The notes: generated from the sequence alone by a model not told the origin. DNA of 41,573 bases from an uncultured Actinomycetota bacterium (GCA_964418395.1 CAYQMQ010000001.1:1-41573), one strand, 5' to 3'. Shown: positions 1 through 29,238, numbered from the stretch's first letter. Program-made: numbers and translations.

Positions 1-661
1 GGGTGGTCTCCAGCCCCACCTCGACCTCGAAGAAGTCGGCGCGCTGGCTGATCTGGTAGGGCACGTCGGTCAGGCCGAACTCGTTGCCCACCCGGCCAGC
101 GCCCACCATGACCTGGCGCGACACCAGGAACGGGACCAGCTGGCGCACGATCTCGCCGAACGGCAGGCGCCGCGAGATCAGGAAGTTCTCGTGGCACCCG
201 TAGGCGGCGCCCTTGCCGTCGGTGTTGTTCTTGGTGACCACGATCCGGCCGGGGTTGGCGGGGCTGTGACCCGGCAGCAGCTCCCCGGCCCGGTCGGCGG
301 CCATCTCGAGGATGCGTTCGCCGGCTTTGTCCCAGATGAGCGCATCGCGGGGGTTGGAGCACTCCGGCGAGGAGTACTCGGGGTGCGCGTGGTCCACGTA
401 GAACCGGGCCCCGTTGGCCAGGATCGCGTTGGCCAGCCCGATGTCGTCCTCGGGCGGGGGCTCGTGGGCCCCCGGCTGGGTGAACCCGCGAGCGTCCCGC
501 AGCGGGTTTTCCTCTTCGTAGTCCCACTTGGCCCGCGGGCCGCCGTCGGCGCTGTAGGCGTTGACCACCATGGAGGAGGCCAGCACGGGGTTGAAGTCGG
601 GGCGGCCGACCACCGAGATGCCGTACTCGGTCTCGGTGCCGAGATACTTGGGGAGCGCCAT
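1..661 (-). CDS. dop: Pup deamidase/depupylase Dop, N-terminal ~220 codons (3' end lies beyond the window start)
   Basis: Not in the ORF track because no stop codon lies inside the window. My minus-strand translation from ATG 661..659 reads MALPKYLGTETEYGISVVGRPDFNPVLASSMVVNAY...GARFYVDHAHPEYSSPECSNPRDALIWDKAGERILEMAA...YGCHENFLISRR...QISQRADFFEVEVGLETT. This is the Dop/PafA carboxylate-amine ligase signature, and it is closer to Dop (YVDHAHPEYS-PEC, IWDKAGER) than to PafA. It starts 28 nt after the arc stop. Confidence 0.85.
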   Translation of the reverse strand, partial: MALPKYLGTETEYGISVVGRPDFNPVLASSMVVNAYSADGGPRAKWDYEEENPLRDARGFTQPGAHEPPPEDDIGLANAILANGARFYVDHAHPEYSSPECSNPRDALIWDKAGERILEMAADRAGELLPGHSPANPGRIVVTKNNTDGKGAAYGCHENFLISRRLPFGEIVRQLVPFLVSRQVMVGAGRVGNEFGLTDVPYQISQRADFFEVEVGLETT

Positions 662-689
662 CGTCACGTGCCCATGCCCACCGCGGGGC

Positions 690-2414
690 TCACAGATACT
701 GCCCGGTGGAAACGTTCTCGATCGACTTGCCCGGCGAGCTGCCGTCCTCGATCAGGGTCCGCACGTACACGATACGCTCGCCCTTCTTGCCGGAGATCCG
801 GGCCCAGTCGTCGGGGTTGGTGGTGTTGGGCAGGTCCTCGTTCTCAGCGAACTCGTCGCGCACGGCCGCGTACATGTCGTCGGCCTTGATGCCCTTCTGC
901 CCCTCGTCGAGGTAGCGCTTGATCGCCTTCTTCTTGGCGCGCGCCACCACGTTCTCGATCATCGCCCCGGAGTTGAAGTCCTTGAAGTACAGGATCTCCT
1001 TGTCGCCGTTGGCGTAGGTGACCTCCAGGAAGCGGTTCTCGTCGCTCTCGGCGTACATCCGCCGGCACGTCTCGGCCACCAGGTCGTCGATGGCGGCCGA
1101 CTCGTCGCCGTCGTGGCTCTTGACCAGGTCCGGGTGCAGCGGAAGCTTCTCGTTGAGATAGACGCGGAAGATGTCGCGCGCGCCGGCCTCGTCGGGGCGC
1201 TCGATCTTGATCTTCACGTCGAGCCGGCCGGGGCGCAGGATCGCCGGGTCGATCATGTCCTCGCGGTTGGAGGCGCCGATGACGATGACGTCCTTGAGCG
1301 ACTCCACCCCGTCGATCTCGCTCAGCAGCTGCGGCACGATCGTGTTCTCGACGTCGCTGGAGACCCCCGAGCCGCGGGTGCGGAAGATCGAGTCCATCTC
1401 GTCGAAGAACACGATGACCGGAAAGCCCTCCTCGACCTTCTCGCGGGCGCGCTGGAAGATCAGCCGGATCTGGCGCTCGGTCTCGCCGACGTACTTGTTC
1501 AGCAGCTCCGGGCCCTTGATGTTCAGGAAGTAGCTGCGGGCGTCGGCCCGGCCCTCCTTCTCGGCCACCCGCCCGGCCAGCGAGTTGGCCACGGCCTTGG
1601 CGATCATCGTCTTGCCGCAGCCGGGCGGGCCGTACAGCAGGATGCCCTTCGGCGGGGTCAGATCGTGCTCGTGGAACAGGTCGGCGTGCACGAACGGCAA
1701 CTCGATCGCGTCCTGGATCTGCTCGATCTGGCCGCCCAAACCGCCGATGTCCTCGTAGGCCACGTCGGGGATCTCCTCGAGGACGAGCTCTTCGACCTCG
1801 GGGCGGGGAAGCCGCTCGAGGGCATACCCGCTGCGGGGCTCGACCAGCAGCGAGTCCCCGGCACGCAACGGCACGTCCCGCAACGGCTCGGCGACGTGGA
1901 CGACCTGCTCGTCGTCGGTGCGCCCGATCACCAGCAGCCGCTCACCGGCGATGCGCTCCTTGAGGGTCATCACCTCGCCGACGAGCTGGAAGGTGGCGCT
2001 CTCCACCACGTTGAGCGACTCGTTGAGCACGACCTCCTGGCCACGCACCAGCGAGTCCAGCTCGACCTCCGGGCTGACGTGCACGCGCAACTTGCGGCCC
2101 TGGGCGAAGACCTCAACCACCTCGTCGGTGAGCCGCTGCAGGTACACGCCGTAGCTTGACGGCGGCGACGACAGCTTCTCGACCTGTTCCTTGAGCGATT
2201 GGATCTGCTCGCGGGCTTCACGCAACGTCTCGGCGAGCTTCGCGTTCTGCGCGTTCGCGGTCGACAGCTGGGTGCGGGTCTCCAGCAGCCGCTCCTCGAG
2301 CGCGCGAACACGCGACGGCGAGTCCTCCAGGCGGCGCTGCAGCACCGTGATCTCTTCCTGCAGGGACCGCACCTTGGCACGAAGTTCGGTGACGTCTTCC
2401 TGCTCTTCGGACAT
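690..2414 (-). CDS. arc: Proteasome-associated AAA ATPase ARC/Mpa
   Basis: ORF 690..2540. It has an N-terminal coiled coil ([22 protein letters not shown]...), Walker A GPPGCGKT, Walker B IVFFDEMD, and the C-terminal ...STGQYL tail typical of Mpa/ARC. I place the start at ATG 2414 (MSEEQEDV). In-frame ATG 2444 and the ORF-track start 2540 are alternatives. Confidence 0.9.
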
Positions 2415-2505
2415 GGCGCTGGCCCTCCCCGCGTCGGCGGTCATCAGATCGGCGACGCGTCGGTTGTCCCGTGCGAGTATAGGTCGACAGGGACGGGTGC
2501 AGGGC

Positions 2506-3360
2506 TTAATCGCCTTTTGCCGCCCCGCCGGAGAGCTCATCGGCGGCGGGCACGCGGCGGGCCACGGTCAGGAAGGCGGTGTGGGCGACCATCCGATGAT
2601 CGGGGCGCACCGCCAGCCCGTCCACGTGCCATCCCCGCTGCAGGGTCTCCAGCGTCTCGGCCCTGGCCCAGCCGCCAGCGGCGTCCAAGGCCTCCCGCAA
2701 GCGGGTGACCTGGGTGATGGTGGGGGTGTACGCGCACAGGATCCCGCCGGCCCGAAGCGCCGTGCCGGCTGCCGCGACCAGCTCCCAGGGCTCGAGCAGG
2801 TCCAGCACCAGCCGGTCGCACTGGCGCTGGGCGAGATGATCGGCGGCATCGGCGACCACCAGCTCCCACGCGTCGCCGACGTCGCCGAGACGGGCCGCCA
2901 CGTTGCGGCGCGCCACGTCGGCGAACTCTTCGCGGCGCTCGAAGCTGGTCACCCGCCCACCGGGCACCACCGCGCGCAGCAGGGCCGCCGTCAGCGCCCC
3001 GCTGCCGGCGCCGGCCTCGACGACCTCGCAGCCAGGCCCGATGTCGGCCAGCCCGACGATCATCGCCTGGTCTTTGGGATACACCACCTGGGCGCCGCGC
3101 GGAGCCTTCAGCGTCCAGTCGGCCGCGGTCGGACGCAGCGCCAACAGCCACGCGCCGGTGTTGGTGCGCACCCGGGTGCCCTCCGGCTGGCCCAGCAGCT
3201 CGTCGTGGGCGACCGTCCCGGCATGGAAAGAGAACTTCTCGCCCGCCTCGAGGCGCACCAGATAGCGGCGCTGCTTGCGGTCGGTGAGCACCACCGTCTC
3301 CCCGGGCGAGAGCGGGTCGGGGTGACCGGGGTGGCGCGGGACGCCGGCGTCGTGGCTCAC
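2506..3360 (-). CDS. trmI: tRNA (adenine58-N1)-methyltransferase TrmI
   Basis: This is the C-terminal 284 codons of ORF 2506..4137: VSHDAGV...[41 protein letters not shown]...[45 protein letters not shown]...[30 protein letters not shown]. As I recall it, this is collinear with mycobacterial Rv2118c TrmI, including the SAM motif EAGAGSG. GTG start 3360..3358 overlaps the upstream stop TGA 3359..3357 (GTGA). Confidence 0.88.
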
Positions 3361-4547
3361 GCGCTGCGGGGTCCGGCCTCGGCGGACGGCGCGTCCACCA
3401 GGCGCAGCATCCGCCGCCGGGTGCGGCAGAAGGCGCACACGGCCGGCCGGTCGTCGGACGGCTGCGGGGTGGGCATCTCGCACTCGGCGCACGGCACCAC
3501 CCCGCCGCCGGCGTCGGCGTCCTCCCGCGGGAAGTGCGCATCGCGCACACGGTCGAGAAAGCCGAACAGGAACTGGGCCTTCGTGCCGGGCGAGTGTGCC
3601 TCGATGCCGTTGAGCGCCTCCTTGTACCGCAGCACCGTGTTGCCGCCCACCAGCGGGCACTCCTCCACGATGTAGTCGATCCCGCGGAGCAGGCAGTACG
3701 CAGCCGTCTCCCGCTCCCCCAGGCGGTACAGCGGCTTGACCTTCTTGGCCATGCCCGCCTCGGTGGCCGGCAGGGCCACGTCCTGGCGCGAGAGGAACGG
3801 CGTCTGCCACCGCAACAGGTTGCCCAGCAGCTGGCTGGCCTCGTCGTCGAGGTTGTGGCCGGTGGCCATGCAGTCGTAGCCCTCCTCGAGGGCAACCCGG
3901 TTGAAGGCGTAGCGCTTGCTCAACCCGCACACCCCGCACGTGGAGCGGCGGTCGTCGCGCCCCGCCGTGGGCACGTCGAAGCCGAAATCGTCGGCCAGGT
4001 CGCGGACGTGGAGCGTGGCCCCGCGCGCGGCGGCGAACTCCTCGCACACCTCGCGCGAGCGGTCGGAGTAGGCGCCGATGCCCAGGCCGAGGTAGAAGCC
4101 GTCGACGCGGTAGCCCATGTCGAGCAGCACGTCCCACAGCGCCAACGAGTCCTTGCCGCCGGACACCGCCACGACGATCGAGTCGCGGTAGGACATCATC
4201 CGGTGGCCGTCGATGGCTTTGCGGACCTGGGCGCGGACGTGGTCCACGAAGCAGTCGGCGCAGAACGCGCTGTTGTGCCAGGCGATCTCGATCACGGCAG
4301 GGGCGTCGCAGCGCGTGCCGTCGTCCCGCTGGGCCCGGCAGCGGGCCGGCCCGGACCCGCCGGAGATGACCGAGCGGATCTCGACGTCGGCCTCGTTGGG
4401 CAGGACGTGATCGCGCGTGACCAGCGTGCCGTCGTGGATGACGAGCACGGTCTCCGGGTTGATCTCGAGGTCGGACAGCAGCTCGCTCACCGGCTTGGGC
4501 CCGGTGACCTCGTGGACCTCGTCGGGGTTGCGGCGCGTGACCCTCAT
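3357..4547 (-). CDS. Fusion protein: N-terminal ThiS/TtuB-like beta-grasp domain ending in GG, joined to a TtuA-like PP-loop tRNA 2-thiolation ATPase with two zinc fingers
   Basis: This is the C-terminal 396 codons of ORF 3357..5180, starting at ATG 4547. Residues 1-64, MRVTRRNPDEVHEVTGPKPVSELLSDLEINPETVLVIHDGTLVTRDHVLPNEADVEIRSVISGG, fit the ThiS/MoaD pattern, including the terminal GG. Next come a CX7C...CXXC zinc finger (CRAQRDDGTRC...CADC), the PP-loop SGGKDS, Fe-S ligand candidates CGVC plus ECPLVGG, and a C-terminal finger CAEC...CAFC. Confidence 0.8.
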   Translation of the reverse strand: MRVTRRNPDEVHEVTGPKPVSELLSDLEINPETVLVIHDGTLVTRDHVLPNEADVEIRSVISGGSGPARCRAQRDDGTRCDAPAVIEIAWHNSAFCADCFVDHVRAQVRKAIDGHRMMSYRDSIVVAVSGGKDSLALWDVLLDMGYRVDGFYLGLGIGAYSDRSREVCEEFAAARGATLHVRDLADDFGFDVPTAGRDDRRSTCGVCGLSKRYAFNRVALEEGYDCMATGHNLDDEASQLLGNLLRWQTPFLSRQDVALPATEAGMAKKVKPLYRLGERETAAYCLLRGIDYIVEECPLVGGNTVLRYKEALNGIEAHSPGTKAQFLFGFLDRVRDAHFPREDADAGGGVVPCAECEMPTPQPSDDRPAVCAFCRTRRRMLRLVDAPSAEAGPRSA

Positions 4548-4601: not shown

Positions 4602-5177
4602 ATGAGTGCTCCCACGACCACCACGGTGGGCCTCAAGGAGTGGGGGGCGGTCGTCCACGCGCTCCTGCAGGGCCGCCAGTCCGTCCTGTTGCGCAAGGGC
4701 GGCATCCACGAGAAGGCGTTCGCACCCCTTGAGCAGCCAGGTGGCGCGGTGCTGTTTCCCACCGTGGCCCACAGCCACCGCGAGCGCGTGCGGGCCGAGC
4801 ACAGCGATCTGCTCGACCTCGGCGAGGCCGACGTCGCCGAGCGCGCGCTGACCCTGCGGGCGGGCGTGCAGGTGGTCGACACGATCGCGGTGGCCCGTCC
4901 GGAGGCGCTGCCCGAGCTCGCCGACCTCCACATCTGGACCGACGCCTCGGTCCGCGCCGACCGCGTGGATTTCCGGCCCAAGCATGCGCTGACGATCATG
5001 GTCGTGCAGGCGGTGGCGCTGCCCGACCCGGTGGTGCTCGAACGGACCGAGGCGTACCGGGGGTGCCGCTCCTGGCTGGACCTGCCGTCTGTGTGGGACG
5101 GCGTAGCGGGCACGCCCGCCCTCGGTCGTGACCGCCTGGCCGATGACGCCGAGCGCGTCCGCCGCGCCGTCGCGTGA
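4602..5177 (+). CDS. DUF1802 family protein (function unknown)
   Basis: This is the tail of ORF 3534..5177 from ATG 4602: MSAPTTTTVGLKEWGAVVHALLQGRQSVLLRKGGIHEKAF... The LKEW...G.Q..LLRKGGI.E opening is what I recall for DUF1802. The upstream part of the ORF is antisense to the TtuA-like gene. TACACT lies at 4589..4594, 7 nt before the ATG, so a leaderless transcript is possible. Confidence 0.65.
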   Translation: MSAPTTTTVGLKEWGAVVHALLQGRQSVLLRKGGIHEKAFAPLEQPGGAVLFPTVAHSHRERVRAEHSDLLDLGEADVAERALTLRAGVQVVDTIAVARPEALPELADLHIWTDASVRADRVDFRPKHALTIMVVQAVALPDPVVLERTEAYRGCRSWLDLPSVWDGVAGTPALGRDRLADDAERVRRAVA

Positions 5178-5671
5178 CACCGGGTTCCAACAGCCGGGGC
5201 GGGGGCGACGGCGGCGGGGACGAGCGTCCAGCGGACCAGCCCTCGGTGACGATCCGCACGGCCGCCGACGCCGACGTGCCCGCGATCGTGGCGTTGTGGG
5301 ACGAGGCGGGGATGCTCGCCTACACCCCCGACCCCGCCGACGATCTCGCCCGCACCCGCGAGCACGACCCCGGCCTGGTGCTCGTCGCCGAGCGCGCCGG
5401 CCAGGTGGTGGGCACGATCACAGGGACGTGGGACGGGCGCCGCGGCTGGATCATGCGGTTGGCCGTCGCGACGGCGGCCCGCCGCCGTGGGATCGCGTCG
5501 CGGCTCACCGCCGAGGTCGAGACGCGCCTGCGCGCTCGCGGCGCCCGCCAGATCAACCTGCTGGTGATTACCCACAACCGGGAGGCGCTGGCGTTTTGGC
5601 GCGAGCGTGGCTACCGCTCCACCGTGCCGGTGGTCATGCTCACACACCGCTTCGACGAGGAGCAGCCCTAG
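5174..5671 (+). CDS. GNAT family N-acetyltransferase
   Basis: ORF 5174..5671. The acetyl-CoA binding core reads WIMRLAVATAARRRGIASRLTAEVETRLRARGARQINLLV...NREALAFWRERGY. GTG start 5174 overlaps the DUF1802 stop (GTGA). An alternative start is GTG 5246 (VTIRTA), which would skip a Gly-rich leader. Confidence 0.8.
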   Translation: MTPGSNSRGGGDGGGDERPADQPSVTIRTAADADVPAIVALWDEAGMLAYTPDPADDLARTREHDPGLVLVAERAGQVVGTITGTWDGRRGWIMRLAVATAARRRGIASRLTAEVETRLRARGARQINLLVITHNREALAFWRERGYRSTVPVVMLTHRFDEEQP

Positions 5672-5900
5672 CGTGGGCTGTCAGAGCGTGGATCGCCAGT
5701 GCGTGGACCGCCACAGATCGGGCAGCGAGCGACGCATCCACGAGTGCCCAACTTGTCGCCGATGCGCCGCACCGTCACCCCCGCCGGGCTCCCTCGTTGA
5801 CCACGGAGACACCGGCATGGTGTCCCGGTTAGCCTGCGCCGAGTGCCGCCTCCGTGCACGCGCACCGGTTCCCTACACGGCCGTCGACGATCGCAGCGAG

Positions 5901-7265
5901 ATGAGCCAGCCCACCGAACTGAGTGGACCCAGCCGCCGCGGGCACCTCGCCGTTCTGGGATGTGCGTGTCTCCTGGCGCTGTCCACCTGTGCTCCGAGCA
6001 TCTCGGCCGACCTCGCCGGGGAACCGAAGCTGTCGTCGCTGTCCACCGCCGACGAGCCCGGCACGGAGACGGCCCCGGCCCTGCCGTCGCTGCCGGACAG
6101 CGAGCCGGTCGACGGCAGCGGGCGTCCGGTGGGGCAGGGCGCCGGGCGCAGCTCGTCGGGCCGCGGCGACCCCGCCGAGGCCGTCGGGGACGGGGAGAAC
6201 GGCAACGCCAGCGACGAGCCCACGATCGAGACCCAGCAGCCGACGATACGCCTCACCGGCAACCAGGTCATCGCCGATCCGCGCAGCGCCGCGGTGGAGG
6301 TGGACGGCGTGCGGTCTGCCGCCGCCATCCGGGTCGGGCAGCTGCCGATCGCCACGAGCGACGGCCCCACCACGGTGGAGACCGCCTCCGTCGACCCCGA
6401 GCAGTTCCGCGTGTTCACCCCCCAGGTGACGGCGGATGCCACCGAAGTCTGGGAGCGCATCGACGAGGGCGACATCGCCGTCACCCACGACACCGGCCAA
6501 CAGCTCGGCCTCGAGCTGGGCGAGCGCCTGCCCGCCGGCGGCGATGACGGCGGGCGGGTGCGCATCGGCGCCTTTGCTTCCAACGGGATCCCGCCGGTGG
6601 CCGACGCGATCATGAGCCACAGCGCCGCCGATGACCTCGGCTTCGGCGGCGAGCTGCAGATCCTGGTGAGCCTCAACGACGGGGTGGACGCCAACCTGGT
6701 CGCCCGCCTGCTCACCGAGGCCACCGGCCTCGAGGCCGAGCCGATCGTCCCACCCGAGACCCAGCAAGCCAACCAGCAACAGACCGGCCAGAAGGCCAGC
6801 AGCGTGCCCGCACGCACACAGCAGATCCAGCCGTTCCGCTACCAGTCCATCGGCGACGGCATGATCCGCATCGACCCCTCCTGGGTCCGGCGCAACATCG
6901 TCTCCGCCAACGTGCCGGTCCTGCCCGGAGCGGTCAGATGCCACCGGGCGATGATCCCTCAGCTGCGGGCGGCGCTGCAGGAAGTCGCCGAGCGTGGCCT
7001 CGCCGACCTCATCCGCCCGGGCGATTACGGCGGCTGCTGGACCCCGCGTCACATCCTGTTCAACCCCCAGCGCAACCTCTCGATGCACGCGTGGGGCCTG
7101 GCGATCGACTTCAACGTGTCCACCAACGGCTACGGCGCCCCACCCCAGCTGGATCCGCGCATCGTCGAGATCTTCCAGAAGTGGGGCTTCGAGTGGGGCG
7201 GCAACTGGTCGACGCCGGACGGCATGCACTTCGAGCTGCGCACGCTGATGGACGTGCCGGGATAA
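5901..7265 (+). CDS. Secreted (possibly lipoprotein) M15 family metallopeptidase, VanY/D-Ala-D-Ala carboxypeptidase-like C-terminal domain
   Basis: This is the tail of ORF 5607..7265 from ATG 5901. It opens with a signal-like peptide, MSQPTELSGPSRRGHLAVLGCACLLALSTCAP. The C-terminus carries M15 zinc-ligand motifs (SMHAWGLAIDF and WSTPDGMHFE). The ~300 aa between them match nothing I recognise. Confidence 0.75.
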   Translation: MSQPTELSGPSRRGHLAVLGCACLLALSTCAPSISADLAGEPKLSSLSTADEPGTETAPALPSLPDSEPVDGSGRPVGQGAGRSSSGRGDPAEAVGDGENGNASDEPTIETQQPTIRLTGNQVIADPRSAAVEVDGVRSAAAIRVGQLPIATSDGPTTVETASVDPEQFRVFTPQVTADATEVWERIDEGDIAVTHDTGQQLGLELGERLPAGGDDGGRVRIGAFASNGIPPVADAIMSHSAADDLGFGGELQILVSLNDGVDANLVARLLTEATGLEAEPIVPPETQQANQQQTGQKASSVPARTQQIQPFRYQSIGDGMIRIDPSWVRRNIVSANVPVLPGAVRCHRAMIPQLRAALQEVAERGLADLIRPGDYGGCWTPRHILFNPQRNLSMHAWGLAIDFNVSTNGYGAPPQLDPRIVEIFQKWGFEWGGNWSTPDGMHFELRTLMDVPG

Positions 7266-7345: not shown

Positions 7346-7429
7346 GTCGGCGTGGCGGAATTGGTAGACGCGCACGGTTGAGGGCCGTGTGGACTTCGGT
7401 CCTTGAGGGTTCAAGTCCCTCCGCCGACA
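7346..7429 (+). tRNA. tRNA-Leu, anticodon GAG, class II long variable arm, CCA not encoded
   Basis: Hand-folded cloverleaf. Acceptor stem GTCGGCG/CGCCGAC. D arm GCG-GAATTGGTAGA-CGC. Anticodon stem CACGG/CCGTG with loop TTGAGGG. Variable arm GGAC-TTCG-GTCC. T arm GAGGG-TTCAAGT-CCCTC. Discriminator A. Confidence 0.9.
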
Positions 7430-7511
7430 CTCCCCCTCGCCACACCGCCCGCTGGCCTGCGACACCGCCCCGGCGAAGCTCGCCGGGGCGTGGGGCCGCC
7501 GAGCCGGGCCC

Positions 7512-8901: not shown

Positions 8902-10590
8902 ATGACGGCAACCGAGCCACGCCCCACGCCCCCGGAGACGGCCGCGCCCACCCACGAGGTGGCCAATCAACCACCACCGCCGCTGGGCTACGACCTGTCC
9001 GCCGAGGCCGCGTTGTCCGAGGGACTGGCCCGCGAGGGCGCCGGCGGGGTGGACGATGGCCTGGCACAGCTGGGCCAGTTGGCCGGATCGGAGCGGGCGG
9101 GCGTATGGGCCGGGCAGGCAAACGCCCACCCTCCGGCGCTGCACACCCACGATCGCTACGGTCACCGCATCGACGAGGTCGCCTACCATCCCGCCTACCA
9201 CGAGCTAATGCGGGTGGCCGTGGGCCACGGGCTGCATGCGACCCCGTGGGCACAGCAGTGGCCGGGCGCCCACGTGGCCCGGGCGGCCAAGTTCTATGTC
9301 TGGGGCCAGGTGGAGTTCGGCCACGCCTGTCCCATCTCGATGACCTACGCGGCGGTGCCCGCGCTGCGCCATCAGCCCGAGCTTGCCGCCGACCTCGAGC
9401 CGCTGCTGGCCAGCCAGACCTACGACCCCGCCCTGCGTCCCCCGGCCGACAAGGCGGGCGTCCTCGCGGGCATGGCCATGACCGAGAAGCAGGGTGGCTC
9501 GGATGTCCGCGCCAACACCACGGCCGCGGCGCCCGCCGGGGCCGGCGGCCCCGGTGCTGAATACCGGCTCCGCGGCCACAAGTGGTTCTGCTCAGCGCCG
9601 ATGAGCGACGTGTTCCTGATGCTGGCCCAAGCACCGGAGGGCCTGTCGTGCTTTCTGGTCCCGCGCGTGCTGCCGGACGGCGCGCGCAACCCGATCTGGC
9701 TGCAACGCCTCAAGGACAAGTGCGGCAACCGCGCGAACGCCTCGGCGGAGATCGAGCTCCCCGACACGGCCGGCTGGCTGATCGGCGACGAGGGCCGCGG
9801 CGTCAAGACGATCATCGAGATGGTCAACCACACGCGGCTGGACTGCCTGATCGGCTCCGCCGCGCTGCAGCGCCAGGCCCTGGTCCAGGCGCTGCACCAC
9901 ACGTCCCACCGGGAGGCGTTCGGCGCCCGGTTGCTGGAACAGCCGTTGATGCGCAACGTGCTCGCCGACCTCGCCGTGGAGTCCGAGGCCGCCACCACGC
10001 TGATGCTGCGGCTGGCCGGCGCGGTGGACCGCAGCCACGGCTCGGGCGGCGACGCCCACGAGCACCGGCTCAAACGGCTCGGCGTGGCGTTGGGCAAGTA
10101 CTGGGTGTGCAAGCGCACCCCCACCGTGGTGGGCGAGGCCCTCGAGTGCCTCGGCGGCAACGGCTACGTGGAGGAGTCCGGCATGCCGCGGCTGTATCGC
10201 GAGGCGCCGCTGAACTCGATCTGGGAGGGCACCGGCAACGTGCAGGCCCTCGACGTCCTGCGCGCGCTGAGCAAGGAGCCCGACGTCCTCGAGGCCTACA
10301 CCGACGAGGTCGACGCCGCGCGCGGCGCCGACGCCCGCTTCGATGGCGCCGCCGACGCGCTGCGCGCCGAGCTCGCCGACACCGACGACGCCCAGTTCCG
10401 GGCCCGCCGGGTGGTCGAGCGCATGGCGACCGTGCTGCAGGGGGCGCTGCTGGTGCGCCACGCCCCGGACGCCGTCGCCGACGCCTTCTGCGCCACGCGG
10501 CTGGCCGGTGAGGGCGGGATGGCACTGGGCACCCTGCCGCGGGGCGCGGCCGTCGACCAGATCCTCGAACGGGCCGCCCCGCGCTGGTGA
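8902..10590 (+). CDS. aidB: AidB-like acyl-CoA dehydrogenase family protein
   Basis: ORF 8773..10590, start at ATG 8902 (MTATEPRP). As I recall it, the protein is collinear with E. coli AidB: HEVANQPPPL..YDL, GMAMTEKQGGSDVRANTT, YRLRGHKWFCSAPMSDVFLMLAQ, LSCFLVPR, RLKDKCGNRANASAEIE, PRLYREAPLNSIWEGTGNV. Confidence 0.85.
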   Translation: MTATEPRPTPPETAAPTHEVANQPPPPLGYDLSAEAALSEGLAREGAGGVDDGLAQLGQLAGSERAGVWAGQANAHPPALHTHDRYGHRIDEVAYHPAYHELMRVAVGHGLHATPWAQQWPGAHVARAAKFYVWGQVEFGHACPISMTYAAVPALRHQPELAADLEPLLASQTYDPALRPPADKAGVLAGMAMTEKQGGSDVRANTTAAAPAGAGGPGAEYRLRGHKWFCSAPMSDVFLMLAQAPEGLSCFLVPRVLPDGARNPIWLQRLKDKCGNRANASAEIELPDTAGWLIGDEGRGVKTIIEMVNHTRLDCLIGSAALQRQALVQALHHTSHREAFGARLLEQPLMRNVLADLAVESEAATTLMLRLAGAVDRSHGSGGDAHEHRLKRLGVALGKYWVCKRTPTVVGEALECLGGNGYVEESGMPRLYREAPLNSIWEGTGNVQALDVLRALSKEPDVLEAYTDEVDAARGADARFDGAADALRAELADTDDAQFRARRVVERMATVLQGALLVRHAPDAVADAFCATRLAGEGGMALGTLPRGAAVDQILERAAPRW

Positions 10591-12028: not shown

Positions 12029-14005
12029 CTACGACCGCGGCGGCGCCACGCGGACGATGCGGTCGTCTCCCCCACGGGGATCGCCGCGCCCGTCGCGGTT
12101 GCTGGTCAGCAGCCACAGGCTGCCGTCCGGCGCTTGCTCGACGTGTCGCAACCGACCGTAGTCGCCCACGAACGTCTCGGCGGCGCCGGTGACGGTCCCG
12201 CCGTCGAGCGCGAAGCGCCACAGCCGCTCACCGCGCAACGCGGCCGCCAGCAGCTGCCCGTCCCATTCGGGCACCGCCGAGCGTCTCGGGATCGTCGCGC
12301 CGCTCCACGATGCCACCGGGGGCTGACGCACGATCACCGGCTCGATCGCGCCCTCGCGGGTCTCGCCGCACGGGTCGGGCCACCCGTAGTTGCCACCGGC
12401 CACGATCAGGTTGACCTCGTCGTCACAGCCCGGGCCGAACTCGGTGGCCAGCAGTCGCCCGTCGGCGTCCCACGCCAGCCCCTGGACGTTGCGCAGCCCG
12501 GTGGCGTACACCGGCGAGCCGGCGATCGGGTTGTCGGGGGGCACGGCGCCGTCGGGCGTGACGCGCAGGATCTTGCCGGCCAGCGACGACGGGTCCTGGG
12601 CGCGCGACGACTCGCCGGCGTCGCCGGTGGCGACGTACAGGTCGCCGTCCGGGCCGAAGGCGATGCGCCCGCCGTTGTGGATCGACGCGTGCGGGATGCC
12701 GTCCACGATGATCTCAGCGTCGGCAGCGCCGGGGCTGAAGCGCACCACGCGGTTGTCGCCGTGGGCCGCGGCGCTGTAGTAGACGTACAGTTGCTCACCG
12801 TCAGGGTGAGCGGTCAGGCCGAGCAGCCCGCCCTCGCCCTGTGAGTCGACGTCGAAGGTGGCCACCTCGGTGGCTGAGCCGGTGCCGGGATCGACCTGCA
12901 GCAAGCGGCCGGTGTCGCGTTCGGTGACGAACGCGCGGCCGTCGTCGGTCCAGGCCACGTCCCAGGGGATCTCGAGGCCCTCCACGACCGTCTCGGGGAC
13001 GATGCCGCAGCGGCGACCCTCAGCGGCGGCGTCACCGATCGCGGCGCGCCCGCCGACCACCACGAGCGCGTCGCCCACCCCGAGCGCCTCCAGCGCGTCA
13101 GCCGACGCGTTCGGCAGGCAGGGCGCCCGTGACAACAGGACGGGATCGCCTTCCCGACCGGCAGCCGCGGAGGCGGCCAGGGCGTCGGGGAAGGCCTCGC
13201 CGGTGGCCAGCCACGCGCCCTCGGCATCGGACAAGCGCCGGGTGGCGACCTCGGCGGCGGTGGCGAAGCGGTCGGCGCCGGCCACGCGGGTGAGATCGGC
13301 ACCGGCCGCGTCGGCGGCGCTCGTGGCCACGCCCTCGCTGATCGCAGCGGTCCCGCCGACCACCACCACCTCGTCCGGATCCAACCCGGCCAGTGCCCGG
13401 GCGGTGGGCTCGGGCAGCGTCCCCTGGGTGGCCAGCAACAGCGGCGCGTCATCGGAGGCAGCGGCGGCGCCAGCCGACAACCCGTCGGGGAACGCGGCGC
13501 CGGAGGCCAGGTAGGCGGTGGCCGCGCCGTCCGGATGGGTCCGGTCGGCGACCGCCGCCGCGGTCGCGAAGCGCCCGCCCCCGGAGATGCGGACCACGTC
13601 GGCACCAGCGGCGTCAGCGGCGTCGTCGGCCACGGCGTTTGAGACCGCCCCGGTGCCGCCGACCACCCACACCTCGTCGACGTCGAGCCGGCCGAGCGTG
13701 TCCAGGGTCGTCGCGGGCGCGTGATCGCGGGTGACCAGCAGCACCGGGGCGGCTTCGGCGGCGGCCGCCGGAGCCACGGCCAGCGCGTCGGCGAACCTGG
13801 TGCCGCTGGCGACGACCGCGACACCGTCTGCGCCCACCTCCTCGGCGACGGCCGCCGCGGTGGCGAACCGATCGTCGCCGGCCAAGCGTGGTGGGGGCTG
13901 CGCTGAGGCGCTGACGATCAGGGCGGCCACGACCAGGGCGGTCGCGGCCGCGACGGTCGCGACGCGTGCCGCCGCTATGCCCATCGTGCGTGGCGGGTGC
14001 GTCAT
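12029..14005 (-). CDS. Secreted protein: three CWB2-type cell-wall-binding repeats fused to a PQQ-dependent sugar (glucose/sorbosone) dehydrogenase beta-propeller
   Basis: Complete ORF with a signal peptide (MTHPPRTMGIAAARVATVAAATALVVAALIVSASA). Three repeats carry G.DRFATAAAVA (GDDRFATAAAVAEEV, GGGRFATAAAVADRT, GADRFATAAEVATRR). The propeller motifs follow: GLEIPWDVAWTDDGRAFVTERDTGRL, HNGGRIAFGPDGDLYVATGD, RNVQGLAWDADGRLLATEFGPGCDDEVNLIVAGGNYGWP. An AAAGGA ribosome-binding site lies before ATG 14005. Confidence 0.85.
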   Translation of the reverse strand: MTHPPRTMGIAAARVATVAAATALVVAALIVSASAQPPPRLAGDDRFATAAAVAEEVGADGVAVVASGTRFADALAVAPAAAAEAAPVLLVTRDHAPATTLDTLGRLDVDEVWVVGGTGAVSNAVADDAADAAGADVVRISGGGRFATAAAVADRTHPDGAATAYLASGAAFPDGLSAGAAAASDDAPLLLATQGTLPEPTARALAGLDPDEVVVVGGTAAISEGVATSAADAAGADLTRVAGADRFATAAEVATRRLSDAEGAWLATGEAFPDALAASAAAGREGDPVLLSRAPCLPNASADALEALGVGDALVVVGGRAAIGDAAAEGRRCGIVPETVVEGLEIPWDVAWTDDGRAFVTERDTGRLLQVDPGTGSATEVATFDVDSQGEGGLLGLTAHPDGEQLYVYYSAAAHGDNRVVRFSPGAADAEIIVDGIPHASIHNGGRIAFGPDGDLYVATGDAGESSRAQDPSSLAGKILRVTPDGAVPPDNPIAGSPVYATGLRNVQGLAWDADGRLLATEFGPGCDDEVNLIVAGGNYGWPDPCGETREGAIEPVIVRQPPVASWSGATIPRRSAVPEWDGQLLAAALRGERLWRFALDGGTVTGAAETFVGDYGRLRHVEQAPDGSLWLLTSNRDGRGDPRGGDDRIVRVAPPRS

Positions 14006-14070
14006 GGCACGATCCTTTCTTCGTCAGCGCACACCTACTGGGCGGTGGTGCACATCCCGAGCCTCCCGTG

Positions 14071-20151: not shown

Positions 20152-20820
20152 TCACTCGGCCACTCGGAATGTGGCGGTGACGCGCAAGCCCACGTCGTCG
20201 ACGTCGCTGTCGGCCGGAGCCTGATAGGTCGCGGTCTTCGTGATCCGGTAGCGCCCGGGCTTGGCCGCGCCCCACGGCTCGACGGGCCAGAACTGGCCCG
20301 CGCTGACCGCGCCGGGTTGCAGCTCCACCCCGACGGAAGCCCACGCCCAGCCCGCGTCCTCGCCCTCCGCCGGGTCGAGCTCCCGCCAGCCGTCGCCGAC
20401 CCACCGCTCGACCGCAAACGGCAAGTCGATCAGCAGCGCCACGTCACCGCGGTTGACCAGGTGAAACGCCACCTCCCCGCCCGTGCGGATCTCTCGCGGG
20501 ATGATCACCAGCTCAACGGCGGCCTCGCCGTGCCGGGTGGGTTTTCGCGCCAGGCTCGCCGCCGCGGGCGGTCGCTCCCGGCCCGCCGCCTCTTGCACCG
20601 AGACCTCCGGTGTCACCCGCTCCGGCATCCCGGGCTCGCCGCTGTCGGGCCACAGCACCACCGCCGAGAGCGCCACCAGGCCGATCACGGCCCCGGTGAC
20701 GAGGCGGGCGGGGAACGCGTCAACTCCGGACCACCCCGTCCCGGACCACGGGCTCAGACCCGCCGACCACCGGTGCCACCACACGCCGACGATCCGGCGC
20801 AGATCACGTGATGTGGGCAC
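20152..20820 (-). CDS. Hypothetical membrane-anchored protein (one TM segment, C-terminal beta-rich domain)
   Basis: ORF 20152..20910, with G/C-rich third codon positions. The TM segment is LVTGAVIGLVALSAVVLW. I recognise no catalytic motif. I trimmed the start to GTG 20820, because the ORF-track start 20910 would overlap the divergent M15 gene. Confidence 0.5.
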   Translation of the reverse strand: MPTSRDLRRIVGVWWHRWSAGLSPWSGTGWSGVDAFPARLVTGAVIGLVALSAVVLWPDSGEPGMPERVTPEVSVQEAAGRERPPAAASLARKPTRHGEAAVELVIIPREIRTGGEVAFHLVNRGDVALLIDLPFAVERWVGDGWRELDPAEGEDAGWAWASVGVELQPGAVSAGQFWPVEPWGAAKPGRYRITKTATYQAPADSDVDDVGLRVTATFRVAE

Positions 20821-20892
20821 ATCACCTCCAATGAACCCCAACCATACGTCGGATGCGGCGGTGGGGAAAGAGCGTGTCGCTACGGTGTGGGC

Positions 20893-21822
20893 ATGCCCAT
20901 CCGGCGACACCGCCTCCTGCTCGCCCCGGCGTTCGTGGTGGCCGCGGCCGCGTGCGGCGCCAGCGACCAGCCGGGGTCACCCCCTGAGCCCGCGGTCGCC
21001 GACGAGGCTGCCACGCCGTCGTCCTCCCCGGCCACGCCCGCGTCCTCGCCCGCCCCGCCGGATCAGGACGCCGCCCAGGCACCGTCCGACCCGAGCCCGG
21101 AGCGCGCTGGGGAGACGGCACGGCCCGAGTGGCTGGGCAGCCGGGAGCTGCCCATGCGCGACGACGGGTTCGGCCAGGTGCGGGACACGCCCGCCGAGCT
21201 CGTCGACCGCCGCCTGCCGCCGCCGGAATCCGACCTGCCCCCACCGCCCGCCGACGGATCGTTCGCCGCCAGCATCGAGCCGGTGCCTGACCCGGTCGCG
21301 GCGCGCTCCACCTGGCGGCCCGGGTGTCCGGTCGGGCTCGACGAGCTGCGCTACGTGACCGTGACGTTCTGGGGGTTCGACGACCGTCCCCACACCGGCG
21401 AGGTGATCGTCCACCGCCGGGTGGCCGAGGACGTCGCCGCGGTCTTCGAGCGCCTGTTCCGGGCGCGCTTCCCGATCGAGGAGCTGCGGGTGGTCCGCTC
21501 CGACGAGCTCGACGCGCCCCGGACGGGCGACGGCAACACCTCGACCGGCTTCGTGTGCCGCGAGATCACCGGCGGGGAGGGCTGGTCGCAGCACGCCCAC
21601 GGGCTCGCGGTCGACATCAACCCGTTCCACAACCCCTACCGCCGCGGGGACCTGGTCGTGCCCGAGCTCGCCAGCGCCTACCTGGACCGCCAGCACCACC
21701 GCCCCGGCATGATCCAACGCGGCGACGTGGTCACCGAGGCGTTCGCCGACATCGGCTGGGGGTGGGGCGGCGACTGGCAGTCGCTCGCCGACTGGATGCA
21801 CTTCTCGGAGTCCGGCCGCTGA
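20893..21822 (+). CDS. M15 family metallopeptidase lipoprotein (D-Ala-D-Ala carboxypeptidase-like)
   Basis: ORF 20887..21822. ATG 20893 gives MPIRRHRLLLAPAFVVAAAACGASD (lipobox AAAC), followed by a Pro/Ala/Ser linker. M15 motifs are SQHAHGLAVDINP and WQSLADWMHFSE. Confidence 0.8.
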   Translation: MPIRRHRLLLAPAFVVAAAACGASDQPGSPPEPAVADEAATPSSSPATPASSPAPPDQDAAQAPSDPSPERAGETARPEWLGSRELPMRDDGFGQVRDTPAELVDRRLPPPESDLPPPPADGSFAASIEPVPDPVAARSTWRPGCPVGLDELRYVTVTFWGFDDRPHTGEVIVHRRVAEDVAAVFERLFRARFPIEELRVVRSDELDAPRTGDGNTSTGFVCREITGGEGWSQHAHGLAVDINPFHNPYRRGDLVVPELASAYLDRQHHRPGMIQRGDVVTEAFADIGWGWGGDWQSLADWMHFSESGR

Positions 21823-22623: not shown

Positions 22624-23613
22624 ATGACCCGGGTAGGGCTCGTGCTCGGCGCCGGTGGAACGGTCGGTCAGGCCTACGAGGCCGGTGTGCTCGCCGCGCT
22701 CGAGAACGACCTCGGCTGGGACGCCCGCAACGCGGACGTGATCGCCGGCACCTCCGCCGGGGCGGTCAACGCCAGCTTGCTGCGCTTGGGCGTGCCTGCC
22801 CACGACCTCGCGGCGTGGGCGGTCAACGCCCCGCTGTCCACCGACAGCGCGCCGCTGCACGCGTGGTTGCGGCGCTCCCGGTCGCACCTGCCACCGCTGA
22901 GCCTGCGGCACTACCTGGGCCGGTGGCGGCTCCCGGCGCCGGCGATGATCAAAACCATCCTGCGCCGGCCGTGGGCGCTGCGCCCCAGCGTGGTCGCCAG
23001 CGCGATGGCGCCCACCGGCAAGGTCGACCTCGCCGAGCGCGCCAACGACCTGCACCGCGTGATCCCGCGCGAGTGGCCGGACGGGCTGCGCATCGTCGCC
23101 ACCCGCCGGGAGGACGGTGCCCGGGTCACCTTCGGGCGGCCGGAGGCTCCGGCGGTGTCCCTGCCCGACGCCGTGTCGGCCTCCTGCGCGATCCCCGGCT
23201 ATGCCACCCCGCTGGAGATCGGCGGCGTGGAGTACCTCGACGGCGGCGTGTACTCGCCCACGAACGCCGACGTGCTCGCCGACGAGGGCTGCGACCTGGT
23301 GCTCGCCCTCGCGCCCATGTCGGCGGCCTCCGGGCTGGCCCCCGGCTGGGACGCGCCGCTGCGCTACGTCGTCCATCTCGAGCTCGAGCGCGAGCTGGCC
23401 ACGTTGGTCCAAGCGGGCACCACGGTGGTGCGGTTCGAGCCGGCGCAGGCGGCCCTGTCGGCCATGGGGCTGGACCTGATGGACGATCACCGCTCCGAAC
23501 AGGTTCTGCAAGAGGCCGTCGTGGAGACGGGGACGTACACTGCCCGTGAGGACATCGCCGCGCGGCTGACTGCACTGACGAACCGGTCGTCGCGACGACA
23601 CCCCGCCGCCTGA
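22624..23613 (+). CDS. Patatin-like phospholipase family protein
   Basis: This is the tail of ORF 22555..23613 from ATG 22624. It has the oxyanion loop LVLGAGGTVG, the nucleophile elbow GTSAG, and the catalytic Asp motif YLDGGVYSPTN. Confidence 0.85.
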   Translation: MTRVGLVLGAGGTVGQAYEAGVLAALENDLGWDARNADVIAGTSAGAVNASLLRLGVPAHDLAAWAVNAPLSTDSAPLHAWLRRSRSHLPPLSLRHYLGRWRLPAPAMIKTILRRPWALRPSVVASAMAPTGKVDLAERANDLHRVIPREWPDGLRIVATRREDGARVTFGRPEAPAVSLPDAVSASCAIPGYATPLEIGGVEYLDGGVYSPTNADVLADEGCDLVLALAPMSAASGLAPGWDAPLRYVVHLELERELATLVQAGTTVVRFEPAQAALSAMGLDLMDDHRSEQVLQEAVVETGTYTAREDIAARLTALTNRSSRRHPAA

Positions 23614-23662
23614 CCCCCACGCGCCGCGCGCCACCGCCCGGCACGACCACACAGGACCCCTC

Positions 23663-28421: not shown

Positions 28422-28422
28422 G

Positions 28423-29238
28423 TTGGCTGGCGCACCACCGGAGGCGAGCCGGTCAGGCGGGGAGGGCGCCGCCCGGGCCGGGGATCGGGCCGGGACAACG
28501 CCACCGGCACGCGCGCGCTTCCACGGCGACCTCGTCGAGCTGGCCGCATGTGCGGACCGGACCGGCCTCGTGCTGGTGCGCGCTCCGTCGCACCGCACGG
28601 TCAAGGATGCCGTGGAGGCGTGCGGCGTACCCCACACCGAGGTGGACCTGCTGCTGGCCGACGGCGCCAGCGTCGGCTTCGCCCACCGCGTGCGCCCCGG
28701 GGCCACGCTCGACGTGTACCCGTGGGCGGGCGCGCCCCCCGACGAGCCGCCCTCGCTCGTGCGGCCCGAGCCGCTGCCCGCGCGCTTCGTGGCCGACGTG
28801 CACCTGCACCGCCTCGCCCAGCTGCTCCGGTTGGTCGGCGTCGACGTCCGCGCTCACGCCGGCGCCGACGATCCCGAGTTGGTCGACACCGCCGTGACCG
28901 AACGCCGGTGGCTGCTCACCCGGGATCGGGGGCTGCTGATGCGCCGCCGGGTCACGCACGGCTACCTCGTGCGGGCCCACGACCCCCGCGCGCAGCTGCG
29001 CGAGGTGGTCGCCCGCTTCGGCCTCGCCGACCGGCTCGCGCCCTTGACCCGCTGTGCCCACTGCAACTCGGGGCTGGCGCCGGTGGCCAAGGCCGATGTC
29101 GCCCACCGCCTGGAGCCGGGCACCAAGGCGGCGTTCGACGACTTCGCTCAGTGCACCGGCTGCGGGCAGGTCTTTTGGCGCGGGGCCCACGCCGAAGCGC
29201 TGGACGAGCTCATCGCCTCGACCCGACAGGGCTCCTGA
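28423..29238 (+). CDS. Ub-Mut7C protein: N-terminal ubiquitin-like beta-grasp, Mut7-C (DUF82, PIN-like) RNase domain and zinc ribbon
   Basis: This is the tail of ORF 28324..29238. The beta-grasp reads RFHGDLVEL...VKDAVEACGVPHTEVDLLLADGASVGFAHRVRPGATLDVYP. The Mut7-C domain reads RFVADVHLHRLAQLLRLVGVDV...ERRWLLTRDRGLL...RCAHCN...CTGCGQVFWRGAH. The only start codon upstream of the domain and outside the ClC gene is TTG 28423, 1 nt after the ClC stop. Confidence 0.75.
   Translation: MAGAPPEASRSGGEGAARAGDRAGTTPPARARFHGDLVELAACADRTGLVLVRAPSHRTVKDAVEACGVPHTEVDLLLADGASVGFAHRVRPGATLDVYPWAGAPPDEPPSLVRPEPLPARFVADVHLHRLAQLLRLVGVDVRAHAGADDPELVDTAVTERRWLLTRDRGLLMRRRVTHGYLVRAHDPRAQLREVVARFGLADRLAPLTRCAHCNSGLAPVAKADVAHRLEPGTKAAFDDFAQCTGCGQVFWRGAHAEALDELIASTRQGS

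Follow-up and report, generated by a model that had tools for sequence, protein, structure and literature searches.

A TtuB-TtuA fusion gene at the head of a Pup-proteasome locus in an uncultured Actinomycetota bacterium

The ttuB-ttuA gene and its two domains

Positions 3357–4547 of the DNA analyzed here, a stretch of 41,573 nucleotides from an uncultured Actinomycetota bacterium (GCA_964418395.1 CAYQMQ010000001.1:1-41573; hereafter the window, G+C content 72%), form a single open reading frame (ORF) on the minus strand, with an ATG at 4547 and 396 codons followed by a TGA at 3359–3357. Translation, Pfam matches, and full-length homologues identified it as an in-frame fusion of a TtuB-like sulfur carrier with a TtuA-like tRNA thiolase, which we refer to as ttuBA; a plus-strand frame across the same interval was ruled out as the gene. 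The protein reads MRVTRRNPDEVHEVTGPKPVSELLSDLEINPETVLVIHDGTLVTRDHVLPNEADVEIRSVISGG, then SGPAR, CRAQRDDGTRC...CADC, SGGKDS, CGVC, EECP, and CAEC...CAFC, so that the module of residues 1–64 terminates in ...EADVEIRSVISGG with SGPAR directly after it. An initial annotation of this DNA had listed the CADC, SGGKDS, CGVC plus third Cys, and CAEC...CAFC motifs and had placed the Gly-Gly inside the fused chain; the minus-strand translation reproduced this layout, with Gly-Gly at residues 63–64 of 396. It gave no strand, and it omitted the 4-nt overlap with trmI, the position in a Pup-proteasome locus, and the origin from a split ttuB-ttuA pair, which are described below.

That annotation had also considered that the true start might lie downstream of the Gly-Gly, leaving the N-terminal module untranslated. 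All homologues start, like the window protein, with M(K/R)V..RNPD, and the window gene has no ATG, GTG, or TTG in frame between residue 55 and Cys70. Against an 80%-identical orthologue (L001), the ratio of non-synonymous to synonymous substitution rates (dN/dS) was 0.165 in the TtuB part of the gene and 0.20 in the catalytic part. These three observations support the upstream start. The TtuB part is under purifying selection and evolves as slowly as the enzyme part. The best 120 database homologues were 363–424 residues long, showed 60–98% identity, and had the same architecture as the window protein; some annotation pipelines label such proteins "TilS/MesJ/sulfur carrier protein ThiS". Rfam, promoter, and terminator scans around the gene returned no match.

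The TtuB-like beta-grasp sulfur-carrier domain (residues 1–64, positions 4356–4547, minus strand) ends in VISGG. When residues 1–64 were compared with all PDB sequences using phmmer, they matched Thermus thermophilus TtuB (5ztb_E) with an E-value of 6.6e-7 and approximately 38% identity, and the alignment reached the final residue of 5ztb_E (...LEVLSAISGG versus ...VEIRSVISGG). Pfam matches on residues 9–64 to SAMP2 (E 1.4e-4) and ThiS (E 5e-4) were both under the cut-off. An AlphaFold2 model of the fusion, built with 81 fused homologues as input, had a mean predicted local distance difference test (pLDDT) score of 87 and a predicted template modeling (pTM) score of 0.87. It placed a beta-grasp at residues 2–59 with strands at 2–6, 10–13, 34–38, 41–43, and 54–59 and a helix at 20–26, that is, a bb-a-bbb order with pLDDT values of 82–94. 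Foldseek aligned the TtuB part of the model to 5ztb_E with a template modeling (TM) score of 0.89 over 65 columns, and the beta-grasp fold proposed for these residues in the initial annotation is thus confirmed by both model and structural search.

TtuB-type carriers are regarded as the nearest prokaryotic relatives of Urm1 and ubiquitin. Since a ThiS/TtuB-type carrier works via the carboxylate of its last Gly, the protein as encoded, in which the Gly-Gly lies within the chain instead of ending it with an unblocked carboxylate, is unable to act as a carrier, and its TtuB domain would qualify as one only after cleavage. The adjacency to ttuA that characterizes ttuB is present, here in the form of a fusion.

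Residues 70–396 are, judged from sequence, a complete TtuA, the group II tRNA 2-thiouridine synthetase of the TtcA family, with both zinc fingers, the PP-loop, and three predicted Fe-S cysteines. Residues 80–377 matched T. thermophilus TtuA (5gha_A/5ztb) with an E-value of 3.5e-77 and approximately 45% identity in the phmmer comparison with all PDB sequences, followed by weaker matches to Pyrococcus TtuA (3.4e-60), NcsA (6scy; 2e-19), and TilS (6e-8), and Foldseek aligned the TtuA part of the model to Thermus TtuA (5ztb_B) with a TM score of 0.85. Pfam recognized the PP-loop (PF01171, E 2e-10, 41 bits versus a cut-off of 27) and TtuA_LIM_N (PF22082, 32 bits versus a cut-off of 27). The top NCBIfam model was the Pyrococcus-type TtuA equivalog NF049949 (E 9.7e-68), whose 228 bits lie under its 450-bit cut-off; that model is built on the archaeal type, so the bacterial enzyme scores short of it, and the shortfall weakens an automatic equivalog assignment but leaves family membership unaffected. 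The other NCBIfam models scored far lower (NcsA 1.8e-28, TtcA 6.8e-15, and also TilS). Sequence, fold, and context therefore support the initial annotation in its view that a TtuA-type, not a TtcA-type, thiolase is fused via Gly-Gly to a ThiS/TtuB-like carrier.

All features of the TtuA part lie on the minus strand, and invariance is given for a set of 81 sequences. The N-terminal zinc finger (4251–4340; PF22082) comprises C70, C80, C96, and C99, of which the first three are invariant; the fourth ligand is Cys99 in the window protein and mostly His in its relatives (CAEHF consensus). Its first knuckle (4311–4340, residues 70–80) is a C-x9-C, CRAQRDDGTRC, where the family consensus is CxxC, and this seven-residue insert is confined to the closest relatives of the window protein (P0001–P0008, L001). 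The ATP pyrophosphatase motif of the PP-loop, SGGKDS (residues 129–134, 4146–4163), is invariant. Three predicted [4Fe-4S] ligands within 3657–3938, C204 (3936–3938), C207 (3927–3929), and C297 (3657–3659), are likewise invariant and correspond in the alignment to the cysteines of the CxxC and EECP motifs in T. thermophilus TtuA, the cluster-ligand role being taken from the TtuA literature (PMC7025502). The C-terminal zinc finger (C353, C356, C371, and C374; 3426–3491) is also invariant and aligns with the CxxC...CxxC of Thermus TtuA. Lys211, which aligns with the Thermus TtuA conjugation site K137, is invariant, and Thermus K226 and K229 are not conserved in the window protein. Homology and the trmI overlap point to ATP-dependent 2-thiolation of tRNA U54 or 5-methyluridine 54 (m5U54) as the probable reaction.

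The codons of Gly63-Gly64, the internalized carrier terminus and predicted cleavage site (G64|S65), lie at 4356–4361 and are followed by the five-residue linker SGPAR (4341–4355), which leads to the first zinc-finger Cys and contains no in-frame start. VIS-GG was intact in 137 of 137 fused sequences. The residue after it was Ala in 119, Ser in 17, and Gly in one, and the linker between Gly-Gly and the first zinc-finger Cys was 4–8 residues long and variable in sequence, with the ancestral TtuA Met retained in 10 of the 137. Conservation is therefore higher at the Gly-Gly than in the sequence around it. Residues 62–64 (SGG) formed the sole segment of the AlphaFold2 model with a pLDDT below 50, which is consistent with a flexible, accessible stretch. 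One fused sequence comes from Egibacter rhizosphaerae (P0111), where it lies on a 4.64-Mb contig with the junction VISGG-AGPRAPQ-C. With the junction shared by all 137 sequences and the TtuB part under constraint, the fusion is real.

Origin of the fusion and its gene neighborhood

A survey with the N-terminal 135 residues, in which each species was represented by a single genome, yielded at least 600 candidate stretches, 493 of which encoded a relative, and the best 80 of these 493 loci were read frame by frame. Sixteen carried in-frame fusions. In the other TtuB-bearing loci the genes were split, with a TtuB ORF ending in ...V(I/M/V)SGG directly before ttuA; this ORF ended at most approximately 30 codons before the first ttuA Cys codon or overlapped the ttuA start. 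Split pairs were found in Acidimicrobiia, Nitrospirota, Chloroflexota, Methylomirabilota, Binatia, and two archaeal metagenome-assembled genomes (MAGs). Outside Actinomycetota, 28 of the loci had a TtuB, which ended at Gly-Gly in 20, carried a tail of 1–5 residues in seven and a long tail in one, and was never fused; three further loci had no TtuB or reached a contig edge. Within Actinomycetota the corresponding numbers for 45 loci were five, 24, and one, with 15 fused and two further loci lacking TtuB or at a contig edge. Loci labeled only "uncultured bacterium" contributed one fusion and one locus in which no TtuB was found. Among the phylum-labeled loci of this set, the fusion occurs only in Actinomycetota, Nitriliruptoria included; the split ttuB-ttuA pair is the widespread state and the fusion a clade-specific derivative. 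The nearest named relative in the set was a Nitriliruptoria MAG (L006), with 77% identity over the first 135 residues.

In a neighbor-joining tree of the TtuA part, constructed without support values, the fusions fell into two groups, which indicates at least two fusion events. Group A, the Nitriliruptoria group that includes the window, has the junction GG-(A/S)GPAR-C without a Met. In group B the junction is GG-x(2-6)-NRMKC; the ancestral TtuA Met is retained there, and split forms are scattered among its fusions in the tree. An overlap of the ttuB stop with the start of ttuA (ATGA/GTGA), seen in many split loci of Actinomycetota and usual for the tailed forms, creates the TtuB tails of 1–5 residues. 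In split loci (L020–L085; e.g., L041 at 10190–10205, L024, and L043), the TtuB Gly-Gly codons often read GGAGG and lie 5–10 nt before the ttuA start, and the C-terminal codons of TtuB may therefore double as the Shine-Dalgarno site of ttuA.

The TtuB domain by itself, used as a phmmer query against the whole library, had 258 hits, of which the best 150 representatives were classified. TtuB ended at Gly-Gly in 30 of these, had a tail of 1–5 residues in 52 and of 6–60 residues in 47, and ran into TtuA in seven; the motif was not found in 14. The Gly-Gly was therefore blocked in 106 of the 136 representatives with the motif, and the following residue was Ala or Ser in 72 of the 106. Many stand-alone TtuB-like proteins in this collection (P0123–P0162; e.g., P0127, P0128, and P0148) carry unconserved, low-complexity tails of 7–40 residues after Gly-Gly.

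Downstream of the fusion, and in the same direction, lies trmI (2506–3360, minus strand), a member of the tRNA 1-methyladenosine 58 (m1A58) methyltransferase family (Pfam GCD14, E 1.7e-29; TrmI-like_N, 6.5e-17). Its GTG start (3358–3360) overlaps the ttuBA stop (3357–3359) by 4 nt, as GTGA, which suggests translational coupling. The next gene in this direction encodes the proteasomal AAA ATPase Arc/Mpa (690–2540, minus strand; Pfam AAA, Prot_ATP_ID_OB_N, and Prot_ATP_ID_OB_C) and is followed, in the dop position, by a Pup-ligase family gene cut by the window edge (1–751, minus strand; Pfam Pup_ligase, E 1.3e-74), so that ttuBA heads an arc-dop Pup-proteasome locus. Neither the window protein nor P0111 had an exact entry in the contig collection, and related contexts were taken from P0007, P0063, P0038, and P0092 and read in annotated loci (L001–L005), the gene calls in MAG loci coming from a simple caller. 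A trmI homologue stood directly downstream of the fusion in all five, and the order arc-dop-pup-prcB-prcA-pafA was complete in L001, L002, and L004, with ttuBA-trmI preceding it. Across 86 loci, the neighbor types were Arc (46), TrmI (40), and Pup-ligase (33). Elsewhere, other tRNA genes adjoin the ttuB-ttuA pair: in Anaerolineales, those for QueF and a transporter of the Vut_1/YhhQ type, and in Nitrospira, one resembling the gene for the CCA-adding enzyme. Thiolation of residue 54 in Thermus depends chiefly on m1A58 and C56 (PMC7912444), and residues 54 and 58 form a pair (PMC7912444, PMC3980101); the overlap of ttuBA with trmI can be seen as an operon-level mirror of this biochemical dependence.

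Pfam analysis of called ORFs, together with an ORF listing of the gaps, found no ThiF/MoeB-type E1, JAMM/MPN+, rhodanese, or cysteine desulfurase gene in the window, in agreement with the initial annotation, which had reported no E1-like or JAMM gene here. A crude regular-expression scan for JAMM and E1 signature motifs across the window and, within approximately 10 kb, 85 related loci gave two spurious hits and no genuine match. Directly upstream of the group B fusion in seven loci (L008, L013, L014, L016, L017, L021, and L022) lies a gene for an HtrA-like trypsin/PDZ (S1C) protease, preceded by methylenetetrahydrofolate reductase-like and GcvT-like genes. Because it has a lipoprotein-type N-terminus, this protease is probably extracytoplasmic and is an unlikely processing enzyme. 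A neighbor with a Lon substrate-binding domain has no protease domain and a PBP4 neighbor is secreted, so both are unlikely candidates as well. An acyl shift (N-to-O or N-to-S) at the residue after Gly-Gly, as a means of self-cleavage, was ruled out because that residue is Ala in 119 of the 137 fused sequences. An internal translation start that would yield free TtuA was rejected for the clade of the window, whose linker lacks a start codon; it is possible in group B, which keeps ...NRMKC.

Predicted maturation and alternative readings

Our favored reading, with a probability of roughly 0.55, is that of a precursor which an unlinked peptidase cleaves behind Gly64, in the way known for MoaX and the Deinococcus MoaD-MoaE protein. 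Because carrier function depends on an unblocked Gly-Gly terminus, processing at this site in the manner of a ubiquitin precursor is probable. Mycobacterium tuberculosis MoaX, a MoaD-MoaE fusion, is cleaved at G82|S83 and is inactive in its uncleaved form (PMC4326299), and linear fusions of MoaD or SAMP1 to MoaE are cut by the JAMM proteases DRJAMM of Deinococcus and HvJAMM1 of Haloferax (PMC8832034). Under the favored reading, a peptidase encoded elsewhere, for which JAMM/MPN+ enzymes provide the precedent, would cut the polyprotein between Gly64 and Ser65, and an E1-like enzyme, also encoded elsewhere, would adenylate and thiocarboxylate the Gly-Gly carboxylate of the released carrier. From the thiocarboxylated carrier (TtuB-COSH), sulfur would move to the [4Fe-4S] cluster of TtuA, itself set free by the cut, and TtuA would adenylate C2 of U54 (or m5U54) and then thiolate it, probably favoring tRNA that already bears m1A58 from the co-expressed TrmI. 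Synthesis as a fusion would secure a 1:1 ratio of carrier to enzyme.

The comparative data, namely the invariance of Gly-Gly, the repeated fusion, the tailed sister TtuBs, and the cleaved MoaD-MoaE precedents, favor cleavage over a non-carrier module. TtuB is almost never made with a free Gly-Gly yet always keeps the Gly-Gly, which implies a maturation step, and the graded series from free Gly-Gly through short and long tails to full fusion fits precursor processing better than repeated loss of function. Several points weigh against this reading. Since TtuA can use sulfide without TtuB in vitro (PMC11323500), an uncleaved enzyme could still work. The invariance of Gly-Gly might reflect a need for flexibility and not carrier chemistry. 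No JAMM, E1, rhodanese, or cysteine desulfurase gene was found in the window or within approximately 10 kb in the 85 related loci, so the required partners are assumed to lie elsewhere in the genome. The target position, 54, is predicted from homology and context, the claim of two fusion events rests on a neighbor-joining tree without support values, and some of the tails of 6–60 residues are possibly frameshifted or truncated metagenomic gene calls.

The main alternative, which we consider less likely than cleavage, is that the fusion stays uncleaved and that the TtuB domain is a tethered structural, docking, or lid module without carrier function, the sulfur reaching the [4Fe-4S] cluster of TtuA directly as sulfide or persulfide or coming from the thiocarboxylate of another, free ubiquitin-like protein (Ubl) such as a CysO- or MoaD-type carrier. 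The sulfide-dependent activity of Thermus TtuA in vitro agrees with this, as do the direct use of sulfide for tRNA thiolation by some archaea and the functional redundancy of Ubl carriers in Thermococcus (PMC11323500), the absence of protease or E1 gene linkage in the 86 contexts, the very short linker (4–8 residues), and the compact model (pTM 0.87). It is not obvious, however, why a non-carrier module would keep its Gly-Gly invariant (137/137), with a small residue after it, while the linker drifts. Nor do the dN/dS values show relaxed constraint on the TtuB domain, the family spans every grade from free Gly-Gly through short tails to full fusion, and the MoaD-MoaE fusions that serve as precedents become active only on cleavage (PMC4326299, PMC8832034). 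We regard as improbable a variant in which the uncleaved protein is an auto-inhibited proenzyme, its TtuB domain blocking or mis-occupying the carrier site until regulated cleavage turns on T-loop thiolation. Such a scheme would parallel the regulatory conjugation of TtuB to TtuA Lys137 in Thermus, where TtuB is conjugated to TtuA and TtuC and a JAMM mutant shows aberrant conjugates and approximately 50% less thiouridine (PMC3980101), and it would suit the invariance of Lys211 and the fact that blocked Gly-Gly termini are the rule in the TtuB family; but it adds an assumption of regulation to that of cleavage, and Thermus K226 and K229 are not conserved in the window protein.

Action at another tRNA position, as 2-thiolation of U34 (s2U34) like NcsA/Ncs6 or of C32 (s2C32) like TtcA, is very unlikely. 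The sub-cut-off score against the TtuA equivalog (228 versus 450 bits) and the NcsA model match (1.8e-28) would allow it. Thiolated T54 (s2T54) is classically a thermophile modification, and the nearest named relatives, Nitriliruptoria, are not known as thermophiles, which points the same way. Set against this, the best solved relatives are Thermus TtuA (3.5e-77) and Pyrococcus TtuA (3.4e-60), with NcsA at just 2e-19 and Foldseek ranking them alike; TtcA lacks the two zinc fingers present in the window protein; and the gene overlaps trmI, which is responsible for m1A58, the pairing partner of residue 54 that favors thiolation there (PMC7912444, PMC3980101). That the fusion is an artefact of a sequencing frameshift, of a stop codon lost in one assembly, or of a wrongly extended start is effectively refuted. 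Split pairs with overlapping stop and start are common, so that one indel could mimic a fusion, and two split loci (L046 and L069) are nested among fused ones in the tree; but the 137 fused sequences are independent, come from many samples and sources, and share the same frame, that of E. rhizosphaerae lies on a contig of 4.64 Mb, and the TtuB part is under purifying selection with no alternative start codon before the zinc finger.

Beyond the cutting of this one precursor, we consider with considerable reserve a joint reading in which the TtuB of Actinomycetota would be a true precursor-processed Ubl, matured by a dedicated Gly-Gly-specific peptidase, with T-loop thiolation of tRNA gated by proteolysis. 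Its Gly-Gly is almost always capped, whether by a few residues, a longer extension, or a whole TtuA, and its maturation would be the bacterial equivalent of the processing of ubiquitin precursors. At its boldest, this reading would couple maturation to the Pup-proteasome genes (dop, arc, and prcBA) that flank the locus throughout the phylum, linking two bacterial Ubl systems.

The components are those of the known TtuA/TtuB system, the architecture would work like that of MoaX-type precursors, and the arrangement amounts to a simple fusion of operon neighbors. T. thermophilus TtuA and TtuB (5GHA, 5ZTB) are the best solved relatives of the two halves and share with the window protein the TtuA layout, a TtuB end in ...ISGG, and a functional tie to TrmI and m1A58 (PMC7912444). 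In Thermus, however, TtuB is a separate protein with a free Gly-Gly, whereas here the Gly-Gly is internal, five residues before the first zinc-finger Cys; K226 and K229 are not conserved, and the gene overlaps trmI, lies in a Pup-proteasome locus, and has its nearest named relatives in Nitriliruptoria MAGs. With MoaX and the MoaD-MoaE protein DR2607 of Deinococcus radiodurans, the fusion shares an N-terminal beta-grasp carrier joined via Gly-Gly to the enzyme that consumes its thiocarboxylate. MoaX, which comes from the same phylum, also has a small residue after the Gly-Gly (G82|S83; here GG|S or GG|A), but the partner here is a PP-loop/[4Fe-4S] tRNA thiolase instead of MoaE, and cleavage is only predicted. 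As the MoaX protease is still unidentified (PMC4326299), it provides no candidate that could be transferred to TtuB-TtuA.

NcsA/Ncs6, which work with SAMP2/Urm1 at s2U34, and TtcA (s2C32) belong to the same PP-loop/[4Fe-4S] thiolase superfamily, and NcsA and Ncs6, too, draw on a thiocarboxylated Ubl (PMC3980101). Their similarity to the window protein is much weaker, and in contrast to theirs its gene context indicates the T-loop, not the anticodon loop, as the probable target. In eukaryotes, ubiquitin-ribosomal protein fusions and tailed SUMO and NEDD8 carry residues after Gly-Gly and require a Gly-Gly-specific protease, and ubiquitin stands N-terminal to small zinc-binding proteins of the translation apparatus. 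The window protein resembles these blocked Ubl precursors in having a beta-grasp domain with further residues or a whole protein after Gly-Gly. The likeness is one of analogy, with no homology claimed between the partners, and the bacterial carrier differs in serving sulfur transfer.

A search of the available literature found no description of a TtuB-TtuA or ThiS-PP-loop fusion or of tailed TtuBs. Makarova and Koonin (2010) described adjacency of ThiS and PP-loop ATPase genes in archaea, without fusion, and Iyer et al. (2006) and Burroughs et al. (2007) do not mention a ThiS-PP-loop fusion. Databases nevertheless contain hundreds of TtuB-TtuA fusions under generic names. The arrangement poses a paradox, in that the carrier chemistry needs a free Gly-Gly carboxylate, yet this carrier is made in one chain with its client enzyme, and tails follow the Gly-Gly in most of its relatives. 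Either the TtuB pathway has a general bacterial Ubl-maturation protease, or the domain has a second, non-carrier role; on the favored reading, the fusion would expose a family-wide maturation requirement for a bacterial Ubl. The fusion offers a one-band-or-two read-out for cleavage, and the lineages with blocked and free Gly-Gly provide a phylogenetic handle on the protease. The presence of U54 thiolation machinery in lineages not known as thermophilic (Nitriliruptoria, Acidimicrobiia, Nitrospirota, and Chloroflexota) would extend what has been supposed to be a thermophile trait.

Other features of the window

Divergent from ttuBA and starting 55 nt away lies a DUF1802 gene (4602–5177, plus strand; E 2e-42), beside which stands a GNAT acetyltransferase gene (5174–5671, plus strand). 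The pair adjoins the fusion in L001 and L002, DUF1802 alone does so in L003, and neither is found in L004 and L005; no functional tie of the pair to ttuBA is evident. A second beta-grasp fusion of the window, at 28273–29238 (plus strand), joins a Ub-Mut7C domain (E 1e-18) to a Mut7-C RNase domain (E 1.4e-43).

An Rfam scan of the window at gathering thresholds returned no match, the tRNA family included. ARAGORN identified a tRNA-Leu(GAG) at 7346–7430 (plus strand), whose canonical T-loop, TTCAAGT, contains U54, C56, and A58. The remaining features comprise two Peptidase_M15_4 (D-Ala-D-Ala carboxypeptidase-like) genes at 5607–7265 and 20812–21822, both on the plus strand, and two genes for proteins with triple CWB2 cell-wall-binding repeats at 12029–14023 (minus strand) and 23579–26110 (plus strand), one with a glucose/sorbosone dehydrogenase domain and the other with GHL10.

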